From NCBI GenBank assembly GCA_964016885.1, contig OZ024747.1:81468001-81532000 (forward strand): 64,000 bases of DNA, read 5' to 3'. Position numbers and translations under genes: made by a program. Of this stretch, positions 19,943 to 30,429 are shown piece after piece. The number at the start of each line of letters is the position of its first letter. The first letter of the stretch is position 1. The notes below the pieces were generated by a model, which made no database searches, was not told the DNA's origin, and saw only the letters and a program-made list of their open reading frames with translations. The stretch is from Eledone cirrhosa. Its lineage: Eukaryota.

Positions 19943-20130
19943 AAAGAGTCAGGACCCCGACGGCTGAGCTCCGGCCGTTTTGACAGTTGTTTGGATCTAG
20001 CTGTCGAAACGGCCGGAGCTCAGCCATCAGCGTCCTGACTCTTTTTCTATTACCCACTCTACTACCCTAAGTATTGGGTACTCTGGTGGGTTATGGTCCA
20101 CCTGGTATCTTACCACACCTTCTTTGTTAG
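19943..20130 (+). mobile_element. Hairpin+tail element family H copy (diverged)
   Basis: aaagagtcaggaccccgacggctgagctccggccg...cggccggagctcagccatcagcgtcctgactcttt, then tail tattacccactctactaccctaagtattgggtactctgg. Confidence 0.78.
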
Positions 20131-20156
20131 TTATATATATATATATATATATATAC

Positions 20157-20365
20157 AGTCCACGCTGTAATGTGGCCGTGTAGGTAACACGGTAAAAAGC
20201 TCCCAGTCCACACTGTAAATGTGGTTGGTGTTAGGAAGGGCATCCACCCATAGAAAACCTGCCAGATAGTCCTATACAAGCAAGACACGGTCACCCAACC
20301 AATTCCCGTCTAACCCATCCTAGCGTGGAAGATAGACGTTAAGCGATGATGATGATGATGATGAT
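20157..20365 (+). mobile_element. RTE LINE 3'UTR fragment
   Basis: cagtccacgctgtaatgtggccgtgtagg...gttggtgttaggaagggcatcc...cccgtctaacccatcctagcgtggaagatagacgttaagcg(atg)n. Confidence 0.88.
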
Positions 20366-21032
20366 ATCAAGTATGGATCCATAGAAGTTTCTGGCTTAGA
20401 GATCCAGAAGCCATTAATTTTATTTCTCTACCTTTGCTTAATCATTTTGAATATTGTAGCCTTCTGTGGTTTCCCCATACAAAATAAAGTATTGTGCAAA
20501 ATAAAAAAAGACAAGTGGAGGGACACTGTACTGGAAAATATTCAAACAGTCCATGTAAACAAGGAAATACAAATGTGAAAATGATGATGAGGATACTGCT
20601 TCTGGGGATGCTACATATGCATATATACATAACATAGAGTTGGAATAGATTTCTAGGTAAGACAAGCTGGAAATGAAATTCTGCTTCATAACAGACCCAA
20701 TGTCAATACTAGCACAATGAACAAAGGATATACTTAGTATGCTAGAAGAATTGTTGAAGTACATTATATAACAGATGGAGATATATACAACAGATAAGAG
20801 ACATGTGAAATATATAGATATTTTGTGCTAAATTATGTATTTGATGTAAAAATGATAAATGTGAATGAGGCGAGTATGTTTAAAGCAAATGCAAAAGTTG
20901 ATAATTCATATAATTTATCTTGAAATCTCATATAAAACATGTAAAGCAGAAATATATACAGAACAGATATAGTTATATATTTAAAGCTCTAGTCTTGTTG
21001 TTTAGCCTGAGATCAAGACTGATTGATGTTTG

Positions 21033-22266
21033 TGTGGTGGTGGTGGTGGTGGTAATAGAATGGTGGAGGTGATGTAGTGGTGGTGGTGGTGATATAGTGG
21101 CGGTGATATAGTGGTGGTGGTGATGTAGTGGTGGTGGTGATGTGGTGGTGATGTAGTGATGGTGGTGATGTAGTGGTGGTGGTGATGTGGTGGTGATGTA
21201 GTGATGGTGGTGATATAGTGGTGGTGGTGATATAGTGGTGGTGGTGATGTAGTGGTGGTGATGTAGTGATGGTGGTGATGTAGTGGTGGTGGTGATATAG
21301 TGGTGGTGGTGATGTAGCGGTGGTGGTGATGTAGTGGTGGTGGTGATGTAGTGGTGATGTAGTGATGGTGGTGGTGGTGATGTAGTGGTGGTGATGTAGT
21401 GGTGGTGATATAGTGGTGGTGGTGATGTAGTGGTGGTGGTGATGTAGTGGTGGTGGTGATGTAGTGGTGGTGGTGATGTAGTGGTGGTGGTGATGTAGTG
21501 GTGATGTAGTGATGGTGGTGGTGGTGATGTAGTGGTGGTGGTGGTGATGTAGTTGTGGTGGTGATATAGTGGTGGTGGTGATGTAGTGGTGGTGGTGATG
21601 TAGTGGTGGTGGTGATGTAGTGGTGGTGGTGGTGATGTAGTGGTGGTGGTGATGTAGTGGTGATGTAGTGATGGTGGTGGTGGTGATGTAGTGGTGGTGG
21701 TGGTGATGTAGTTGTGGTGGTGATATAGTGGTGGTGGTGATGTAGTGGTGGTGGTGATGTGGTGGTGATGTGGTGGTGATGTAGTGATGGAGGTGGTGGT
21801 GATGTAGTGGTGGTGATGTAGTGGTGGTGGTGATATAGTGGTGGTGGTGATGAAATGGTGGTGATGTAGTGGTGGTGGTGGTGATGATGTAGTGGTGGTG
21901 GTGGTGATGTAGTTGTGGTGGTGATGTAGTGGTGGTGGTGATGAGATGGTGGTGATGTAGTGGTGGTGGTGGTGGTGATGATGATGTAGTGGTGGTTGTG
22001 ATGTAGTGGTGGTGGTGGTGATGTAGTTGTGGTGGTGATGTAGTGGTGGTGGTGATGTAGTGGTGGTGGTGGTGATGTAGTGGTGGTGGTGATGTAGTGG
22101 TGGTGGTGATGTTGCAGTGGTGGTGGTGATGTAGTGGTGGTTGTGATGTAGTGGTGGTTGTGATGCTGATGTAGTGGTGGTTGTGTTGGTGATATAGTGG
22201 TGGTGGAGATATAGTGGTGGTGGTGATATAGTGGTGGTGGTGATGTAGTGGTGGTGGTGGTGGTGA
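21033..22266 (+). repeat. 1.2-kb minisatellite of (GTG)3-6-AT[GA]TA variant units (commonest GTGGTGGTGGTGATGTA)
   Basis: Directly visible and almost C-free on the + strand. Confidence 0.97.
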
Positions 22267-22498
22267 ACTAGTGCTTGCTGTTCTTATTTAAAAGTATCAA
22301 TGTGCAGCTATGTTTTATTCCAAACAAAAAGAATCAATAAAGCAAATGAACAATAACAATAAAAATTAATCAGATCTTTCACTGATTTAGTTTCAGTTAT
22401 TTGACTGGTCTGTGTTCATATAGGAGCTATGTCGGGGGGTTTCAGCAATTATATGCCATTTCCCAGATGAATACACTAACATAACATCAAATCTAACA

Positions 22499-22570
22499 TC
22501 CCATGTGGTCTAGTGGTTAGGATTCCTGGCTTTCACCGATGTGGCATGGGTTTGATTCCCGGCATGGGAA
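22499..22570 (+). pseudogene. tRNA-Glu(TTC) gene, probably pseudogenised
   Basis: 72 nt TCCCATGTGGTCTAGTGGTTAGGATTCCTGGCTTTCACCGATGTGGCATGGGTTTGATTCCCGGCATGGGAA. Acceptor stem intact and anticodon TTC, but two anticodon-stem mismatches, a T-stem mismatch and TTTGA instead of TTCGA. TTTT terminator at 22577-22580, no CCA. Confidence 0.88.
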
Positions 22571-28310: not shown

Positions 28311-28848
28311 AATTCAAATTTTGCTAAGAGAAGAAAACGGTCAAATGAACTAGATACATCTCACTGTCCACACCACCACAATAACGTCTACACTCTCTCC
28401 CCACCATCACATGTCATTACCATACCATACCCTATCGAGACTAAAGTCATCGACCTGTTGTCAAACTCTCTACTCTCTGATGAATGTATATATATATATG
28501 TGTGTGTATGTATATGTGTGTATATACATCACTCAGTCAAACAACCAGATTTCAACCCCAACATCTACAACAACAACAACACCGGCCCTAATGTTTACAG
28601 CAACAACAGCTTCAGAATGAACTGAAATGAACATTTACAACAATTACAACAACAACAACAACAGCGGCATCAAAACATAAAAAAAGGAAGGGAAAAGAAA
28701 AAAAAATATATATACATATATATATATATACACATATATATATATATATATATATATATATATATATATATATATAAAGAAAAAGAGATGAAATCGAAAA
28801 TGCAACTGAAGTCTTATTTTTTTAAAAAATATATATATTTATTTGGTT

Positions 28849-28886
28849 CCTTTACCGGTTTCACAGTTCTTCTGCTTTTCAAAAGG
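28849..28886 (-). ncRNA. Mirror-image hammerhead motif in the inverted arm
   Basis: Reverse complement cctt|ttgaaaa|gcag-aagaa-ctgt|gaaa|ccgg|ta^|aagg. Confidence 0.78.
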
Positions 28887-28965
28887 TGAGTTGAGATGGA
28901 GGGTCTGTGGTTTTTCTCACGTCTGTGGTTTTTCTCACAGATGTGAGAAAAACCATCTCAACTCA

Positions 28966-29003
28966 CCTTTTGAAAAGCAGAAGAACTGCGAAACCGGTAA
29001 AGG
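28966..29003 (+). ncRNA. Minimal type-I hammerhead ribozyme motif, U3-A8 compensatory variant
   Basis: cctt|ttgaaaa|gcag-aagaa-ctgc|gaaa|ccgg|ta^|aagg: stem I cctt/aagg, stem II 4 bp, palindromic stem III (accggt), GUA cleavage triplet. Confidence 0.8.
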
Positions 29004-30239
29004 AACCAAATAAATATATATATTTTAAAAAAAAATAAGACTTCAGTTGCATTTTCGATTTCATCTCTTTTTCTTTATACTTCCACTCGTGTAGGACACC
29101 TCGGTTATTTTTCATTTTGTAAAAAAAAACCTCACCTTCTAATATATATATATATATATATACATAGTTTTGCGAGGTTTTTTATATGAAATCGTGTGTC
29201 GCAACAAATATTGTTATACTTGGGGAGGGTCATATTTGTGTAATATTGCCAGAATTAATAACAGAACACACTCACTGTTTGGTTGGTTTTCGCTTCTGTG
29301 TCTTTTATATCGGTAATCTAATTTATTCGGTCCTCAGTGTTGCCATTGACTGACCAACGGTCAAAAATAATACAGATACAATATAGACACAAACACATAT
29401 ATATAGTTTATCAAATTTCTTTCGTTGCACATCTGCAACATCGTCAGTGGTGTTATTGTTTCCTCCCGTTGCATTGTATTTGCAATGGCGTAGAAAACAT
29501 GTATGAATGTGTATATACACATACATGCATATATATATATACACACACATACATATACACACATACATATACATATATATACACACTATACATATACATA
29601 CACATACATATACATATATATACACACATACATATACACACATATATATATATATATATATATATACATACACACATACATATACACACATATATATATA
29701 TATATATATATATACACACATACATACATATATATATATTTTTTTTTTTTATATATACACACACATACATACATATATATATTTTTTTAATTCCTTTGAT
29801 AAATACCTGAGCACAAAAAAAAAAAAAATTAGAGGATGCCCACACATAAGATCACATCACCTCCTGGCATAAAAACATACAGACAAACGAAACACTACTT
29901 TCTTACACCTACCTTAATTCCCTAAATCAGTTCTATGCCTATACACATATCACACTGCACCCAAATATGATTAAATACAATAAGCTATGTAAATTATATA
30001 CACATAAATAACATATACACATTTAGCAATATATTTGTCACACTCCACCTTAATATGGGTTACACACAACAGCCTATATAAATAATACCTACATAAATAT
30101 ACACACAAAAGTACACAAATACACAACATTTGCATATTTAACAACATACTAATAAAAATACCCTTTCACTACAATAACCCATACTCCTCTCTCTTTGTAC
30201 GTATTTTGACAGAATCGCAGAAATATATATATATATATA

Positions 30240-30429
30240 TAACGAAGGAAATGTGGTAAGGAACCAGGTGGACCATAACGCACCAAAGTACTCAATACTT
30301 GAGGTAGTAGAGTGGGTAATAGGAACCAGTAAGACCCCGACAGCTGAGCTCAAGCCGTTTCGACAGCTAGTCCAGAATTAGCCGTCAAAACGGCTTGAGC
30401 TCAGCTGTCGGGGTCTTACTGGTTCCTAT
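30240..30429 (-). mobile_element. Hairpin+tail element family H copy
   Basis: Palindrome 30319-30429 with a 9-nt loop at 30370-30378. Tail nearly identical to 24398-24476. (TA)n flanks. Confidence 0.8.

Follow-up and report, generated by a model that had tools for sequence, protein, structure and literature searches.

Penelope-like elements (PLEs) insert as a standard unit that contains an inverted copy and a tail at one side only (PMC8557442, PMC3846280; citations throughout refer to the portions of each paper that were available). How the inverted repeats and the tails arise is listed as an open question in PMC8557442, which ascribes the one-sided tail to resolution by the endonuclease (EN), and self-priming is the standing proposal (PMC3846280). 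In vitro, the PLE Poseidon of the lizard Anolis carolinensis cleaves AT-rich DNA, both strands are cut and extended, and reverse transcription starts at two internal sites that flank and define the tail, the hammerhead ribozyme being dispensable for insertion (PMC11167929). Here we analyze a 64,000-nucleotide stretch of Eledone cirrhosa DNA (GenBank assembly GCA_964016885.1, contig OZ024747.1, positions 81,468,001 to 81,532,000 of the forward strand; hereafter the window), which holds hairpins built on the 3' half of a hammerhead, together with the PLE family to which they belong.

The family adds a new and very abundant member to a known class; its architecture is known, and the statistics of its junctions are the new part. 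Judged from sequence, the hairpins represent short and failed insertions of a Hydra-clade Penelope-like retrotransposon that is very abundant, and their identity as PLE insertions is near certain. Our best reading of their formation, to which we give a probability of about two in three, is that one RNA serves as template for two target-primed cDNAs, which run off it and are then end-joined. The likeness to Poseidon would comprise AT-rich cleavage, extension of both strands and two internal starts of reverse transcription that define the tail, and we also count the dispensable hammerhead as a resemblance; the differences are that Poseidon belongs to another clade, that multimeric RNA is assumed for it, and that the inverted arm, a capped run-off and a start inside the ribozyme are untreated in the available text (PMC11167929).

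The hairpins derive from a Hydra-clade element

The hairpins that the initial annotation, made from the sequence of the window, placed at 19943, 24482 and 30321 (copies A, B and C) are all present with the outer arms given there, their sense orientations being +, - and -. Each sits in (TA)n and carries a tail of ~80 nt on one side only, with an arm complementarity of 81% (A), 94% (B) and 92% (C). The 10.5 kb separating them is unrelated repeat DNA, and they are three independent insertions. A 17-mer from the tail has 43,992 exact matches in the 3.0-Gb genome, a lower bound on copy number, versus 2 for a control, an abundance far above chance.

We examined the first 100 tail matches on one contig (C1), a position-ordered sample in which insertion flanks are again (TA)n. 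Eight of these copies extend upstream into a whole hammerhead, a 1.1-kb untranslated region (UTR) and the C terminus of an endonuclease. The intact parent, L158, shows in order an inverted tail-bearing arm, a partial copy in sense orientation, a hammerhead and a tail that continues into the leader and a 719-amino-acid open reading frame (ORF), open from an ATG directly behind the tail; past the ORF come the UTR, another hammerhead and an end without a tail, CCTA, adjoining TATA. Read by motif, the ORF encodes a reverse transcriptase (RT) core (FDIESYY, LYRDDGL) and then a VIYQ...YIG endonuclease of GIY-YIG type, and it contains the Hydra motifs LRWRT, SDKTG, CNCPDRSIC (the CxCX5C linker) and CNLC..E..LN..CKH. 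It has 2,054 homologues among the 8,000 scored, the best of which carries PF01541. A partial tandem, or pseudo-long terminal repeat (pLTR), with an adjacent inverted 5'-truncated copy is present in L158 and L238, and we collected 30 head-to-head pairs.

These motifs place the element in the Hydra clade, with which it shares a single ORF, RWR (RWK in PMC8557442), DKT, CxCX5C, and CxxC and CxH around E and N, as well as the hammerhead, (TA)n targets, the partial tandem with an inverted 5'-truncated copy, and a tail at one end (PMC8557442). It differs from the description in that paper, whose supplementary files on Hydra may bear on family identity, in its unit of ~3.5 kb including a 1.1-kb 3' UTR (generally under 3 kb there), in its tail of ~80 nt (30-40 nt for PLEs in general) and in its abundance of at least 44,000 copies, most of them minimal hairpins, as opposed to a small number of families. 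A "Neptune-like" label was dropped on comparison with the description of the Hydra-clade motifs. The family is also not a non-LTR retrozyme, defined as head-to-tail units each with a whole hammerhead (10.64898/2026.07.22.740005, available text), since its units are head-to-head with half ribozymes.

The arms were initially described as differing copy by copy; instead, the segment that varies among the window copies is the stem I bulge of the hammerhead, and arm types are subfamily markers common to thousands of copies. The commonest are S1-S1 (3,675 hairpins) and S2-S2 (4,103), and the observation that the two arms of a copy match each other holds at the level of subfamilies: only 30 hairpins have mixed S1/S2 arms versus 7,778 of the same type, with ~7,800 mixed ones expected under random pairing. 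Among 20 mixed hairpins inspected, 3 are concordant at three diagnostic sites. In L168, L175 and L177 (within L159-L178), an S2 tail and stem III accompany an S1 bulge on the tail arm only, a pattern that suggests patch conversion or template switching.

A whole hammerhead lies upstream in the longer copies

In copies A, B and C, the 5' half of the hammerhead core (CUGANGA/UUGANAA) is absent, as first noted, and so is the 5' strand of stem II. The claim that each arm holds the 3' half stands insofar as the hammerhead is real; it fails in detail, since the sense arm of copy A has lost GUC and ggggtc (the sequence there is atc agcgtc) and neither arm of copy B has the exact gagctc loop. Relatives with a UUGANAA or CUGAGAA half upstream of stem II do exist: whole cores of the form ACCCC-YUGANRA...GUCGAAAC number 5,729, against 1 for the control, and are mostly UUGANAA. 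The minimum free energy fold of L158:2785-2915 is a type I hammerhead with three helices around YUGANRA, GAAA and NUH, of unremarkable stability (z-score -0.04). Among 57 distinct copies, 45 could be parsed, of which 35 have U3-A8, 8 a C3-A8 mismatch and 2 U3-G8. The native 5' strand of stem II is G(C/A/T)UCGGCUA, followed by a loop II of 35-40 nt.

PLE hammerheads are likewise of type I, with the U3-A8 core variant, a 5-bp helix I, a palindromic loop 3 and opposite-strand pairs (PMC4209133); here, in contrast, most genomic copies retain the 3' half only, helix III has 4-5 bp and loop II is long. Because of this short helix III and long loop II, the Rfam models miss the hammerhead, and an Rfam scan of the window and of the intact parent returned none. 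A search for canonical CTGANGA with a short stem II was unproductive, since the genuine core, mostly UUGANAA, has a long loop II. Of its 110 matches, 30 were inspected; those within the family proved to be coincidental words in variable centers, and the others were unrelated. A pairing between the stem I bulge and loop II, CUGGU/ACCAG, was seen by eye in S2 and was not seen in S1 or S3, and it was discarded as a family feature. In part of the S1 subfamily, in long copies such as L181, L182 and L197, the core is CUGAGAA, whose C3-A8 mismatch is predicted to impair it, and yet this subfamily has left 3,675 hairpins. Arms starting exactly at the ribozyme cut site number 261, versus 46 and 74 at 2 nt either side, a comparison confounded by microhomology in a G run.

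Junctions and probable priming from both ends of the target

With the A of AGTCC in loop II taken as position 0, both arms end at a sharp wall there. The first 100 C1 copies comprise 80 short hairpins, 8 long ones and 12 without a called inverted arm. Of the 80 short hairpins, 60 have a longer arm whose end falls within -7 to +5, while this arm extends beyond that interval in 2 and stops short of it in 18 (about 5 of the 80 calls overshoot through self-overlap and remain inside the wall window). CCTA marks the outer end of the inverted arm in 66 of the 80. The family has two fixed outer ends 80 nt apart, CCTA (before T) and CTTCGT (before TA). A tail is found on exactly one arm in 4,213 of 4,394 S2 hairpins, on both in 157 and on none in 24. 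Long arms tend to pair with long ones: 25 head-to-head pairs were counted by hand among 100 listed arms that read through the wall, although just 8 of 100 tail arms are long. The one-tail asymmetry, the concordance of the arms and this long-long pairing fit two primers on one RNA, and equally fold-back or a single source active at any one time.

We propose that the element's enzyme would cut a (TA)n tract and that both DNA ends would prime on one RNA. Transcription would start at the A of TT/TC-AGT, and possibly also 4 nt upstream, to give an RNA in which the 3' half-ribozyme comes first, then the tail, then the ORF. One DNA end would prime at the end of the tail and the other at CCTA; the cDNAs would run off after ~140 and ~60 nt like strong-stop products, the cap often being copied as an extra C, and the two cDNA 3' ends would be fused by host end-joining that trims them, uses microhomology or adds filler. 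Read-through RNA, tandem or circular, would account for the longer copies; in such RNA the whole hammerhead and the 3' UTR stand ahead of the same sites. In twin priming of the LINE-1 (L1) retrotransposon, the second target end primes on the same RNA; the difference is that here both cDNAs would copy the same stretch, giving a duplication and not a split inversion. Retroviral strong-stop DNA is a short cDNA started at an internal primer and extended to the 5' end of the RNA, that primer being tRNA and not, as proposed here, target DNA.

An alternative that we consider unlikely, at odds of roughly one in five, is that a single cDNA is primed at the tail end, runs off at the 5' terminus of the RNA, folds back and copies itself as far as CCTA, the second end being fixed by the endonuclease or by TAT microhomology and later deletions at the palindrome center producing the asymmetry. 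Such snap-back accounts for the single tail and the common template, and for an extra G on both arms (see below); self-priming has been proposed for head-to-head repeats of PLEs (PMC3846280), short snap-back-like inserts occur in some centers, and the junctions of L214 and L222 are symmetric. A copied-back strand cannot exceed its tail-bearing template, so that simple fold-back would have to invoke later deletions that are frequent and reach 3 kb. The tail-less arm is the longer in 34 of 80 short hairpins (tail arm in 30, equal in 16) and in 14 of 30 long pairs chosen for both arms passing the wall and read by hand, there by ~0.1-3 kb (the other long pairs being 11 with the tail arm longer, 3 of roughly equal arms and 2 complex ones), and this is so even where the arms are identical. 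In L158 the tail-less arm extends through the whole ORF. The 24 hairpins with no tail and the 30 with arms of two subfamilies also speak against it, the latter including the 3 of 20 with concordant diagnostic sites.

The centers vary between copies, with overlaps of 1-6 nt, blunt joins, A/T runs and short local duplications. Such features resemble end-joining. Runs of A up to ~20 nt stand at one or both putative cDNA 3' ends in many centers, G000:C1:43259602 among them, possibly reflecting terminal-transferase activity or slippage of the telomerase-like RT. In L064:500-1500 and L222 the junctions are complex, an arm jumping internally by several hundred bases at a time.

The wall as a candidate capped RNA start

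In 100 listed copies that read through the wall, the base 5' of AGTCC is T in 92, C in 8 and G in 0 (hand count). In hairpins with both arms complete, a non-genomic G outnumbers a non-genomic A by 527 to 164 (scored as C versus T after GGACT). Since joins to CAG or CCAG of the other arm could yield the same base, the count was repeated in a context barring such joins, and gave 213 versus 45. RT copying of a 5' cap leaves an extra C in the cDNA, and the G enrichment is as would be expected for a capped RNA start. The sequence TT/TC-AGT resembles an initiator. Penelope has an internal pLTR promoter with initiator and downstream promoter elements, Inr and DPE (PMC2377424). Support for cap copying was not found in the available text of PMC13000458, nor did the literature search give a citable paper. 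The centers of S3 follow their own genomic bases to about -4, which suggests a second start there.

It is improbable, about a one-in-ten matter, that two cDNAs are formed but the wall is something other than a start, such as an RT stall at an RNA structure, a processed RNA end, or the splice-acceptor-like YAG of TTTAG/TTCAG. A pyrimidine tract with YAG does stand at the wall, ends are spread from about -4 to +5, and the intron of Drosophila virilis Penelope ends at helix I of the hammerhead (PMC4209133). The centers, however, contain no constant upstream exon or leader, the AG is kept, about 5,000 arms pass straight through the wall, and the non-genomic G is enriched.

Several points weigh against two-ended priming on a capped RNA. 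Fold-back of one cDNA equally predicts the one-tail asymmetry, the arm concordance and the shared extra G, and the concordance could also be explained by one active source at a time. Coupling of arm lengths is not absolute, since of 10 unpaired read-through arms fetched, 5 turned out to have short partners and 4 had none adjacent to them. In the 527-versus-164 count, joins to CAG/CCAG could explain about 36 of 64 listed loci (hand count); at the -4 start the cap count is 122 C versus 652 A, with a control base that is a genomic variant; a TATA-like word at -29 is not preserved across all subfamilies; and the putative RNA 5' end is placed by genomic junctions. A Pfam search with the 719-amino-acid ORF gave no match. 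The lizard data come from another clade with a tail of 30-40 nt (PMC11167929).

Two further explanations fare worse. According to the initial annotation, the symmetry axis lies at or beside a hairpin in the place of stem II, gacggcta-loop-tagccgtc, and stem II would act as a recurrent self-priming point so that the inverted arm overwrites the 5' half of the ribozyme, or else the arms are homogenized by gene conversion. This is largely refuted and we hold it very improbable, despite the clustering of junctions near stem II, the match of arms within copies and the patchy look of a few mixed-arm copies. The axis lies in loop II, on the 5' side of the 3' strand of stem II and 0-15 nt away from it; gacggcta is an inverted copy of tagccgtc, the native strand being g(c/a/t)tcggcta. 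Priming at stem II would retain native loop II in the center; short centers have neither the native 5' strand of stem II nor the 5' side of loop II, and hold inverted loop sequence with copy-specific filler, and stem II is therefore not the priming point. Inversion points are indeed non-random, as was proposed, and are formed anew at each insertion, but they lie in loop II or, in long copies, anywhere upstream, by hundreds to thousands of bases. Nothing was overwritten, the 5' half having likely never been in the template RNA. As for conversion, in the 38 of 47 hairpins comparable without indels, 39 rare variants are confined to one arm and 2 are shared by both, which argues against it; a hairpin's own arms are 1.29 sites apart, versus 0.83 between copies of one subfamily (counted distances), and own arms match because of a common source. 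The idea that the hairpin is a non-autonomous unit amplified ready-made, like a miniature inverted-repeat transposable element (MITE) or short interspersed element (SINE), is hardly credible: 39 of 40 best matches span the whole 203-nt unit, in a query-biased sample, but centers vary from copy to copy even with identical arms, and the rows listed include no large dispersed groups with one complex center.

Implications for Penelope-like elements

We rate as an even bet the fuller model in which the promoter would lie inside the element's own hammerhead, the RNA would begin with half a ribozyme and carry a whole one only at its 3' end, and priming twice on one RNA, from both ends of a double-strand break, would leave mostly end-joined strong-stop hairpins. 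On that model, the inverted pLTR and one-sided tail of PLEs generally would record dual target-primed reverse transcription and not self-priming. The junction statistics favor two-ended priming and predict an exact capped start, and the question is therefore directly testable; the family provides an intact ORF, an RNA that is short and defined, and natural junctions in the tens of thousands. Neither run-off at a capped start inside a hammerhead nor dual priming as a cause of inversion was found in a literature search of main texts of non-subscription papers; the available text of an octopus repeat annotation (PMC13282606) reports active Penelope families but contains no passage on hairpins or hammerheads. 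Such hairpins are easily misfiled as MITEs or SINEs. Where transcribed, the tens of thousands of near-perfect duplexes of ~60 bp could be substrates for RNA editing, and hyper-editing has been linked to palindromic repeats (PMC5625713).

Family members and other features of the window

Copies of the hairpin family in the window, with strand given in the sense of the element
Feature	Position	Strand	Description
Decayed solitary arm (fifth copy)	12520..12577 (ends approximate)	-	Older subfamily; in (TA)n
Copy A hairpin	19943..20044	+	Older subfamily; inverted arm without tail, fused to a decayed sense arm that holds the hammerhead 3' half
Copy A tail	20045..20129	+	Between the two putative RT start sites; terminates in (TA)n
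Copy B tail	24398..24476	-	Parent counterpart L158:2909-2987 runs on into 5' leader and ORF (ATG at 3080)
Copy B hairpin	24477..24604	-	S1-type; both arms to wall (TTAGTCC); 3-nt filler; outer end CCTA before TA
Copy C tail	30240..30318	-	
Copy C hairpin	30319..30429	-	S2-type; tail-less arm to wall, tail arm ~11 nt shorter; 2-nt microhomology
Fourth copy	56288..56418 (start approximate)	+	Absent from the initial annotation; full inverted arm almost directly abutting tail

Hairpins of similar build but other sequence are also present. At 28773-29140, a 300-bp hairpin of unrelated sequence lies between (TA)n tracts and has a one-sided tail of ~62 nt; it is likely another PLE family of like architecture. 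A 133-bp hairpin at 58174-58370, in (TA)n and with a one-sided tail of ~62 nt, represents a third family of this kind. At 34549-34781, a near-perfect palindrome of 233 bp (97%) adjoins a (TA)n tract, on whose other side the palindrome's end recurs as a short inverted copy. A fragment of a reverse transcriptase resembling that of long interspersed elements (LINEs), 5'-truncated and ending in (GAT)n, occupies 25280-26950, and related short repeats with (GAT)n tails adjoin hairpins A and C at 20158-20365 and 30690-30915. Finally, a match resembling tRNA (39.1 bits) lies at 22499-22570.

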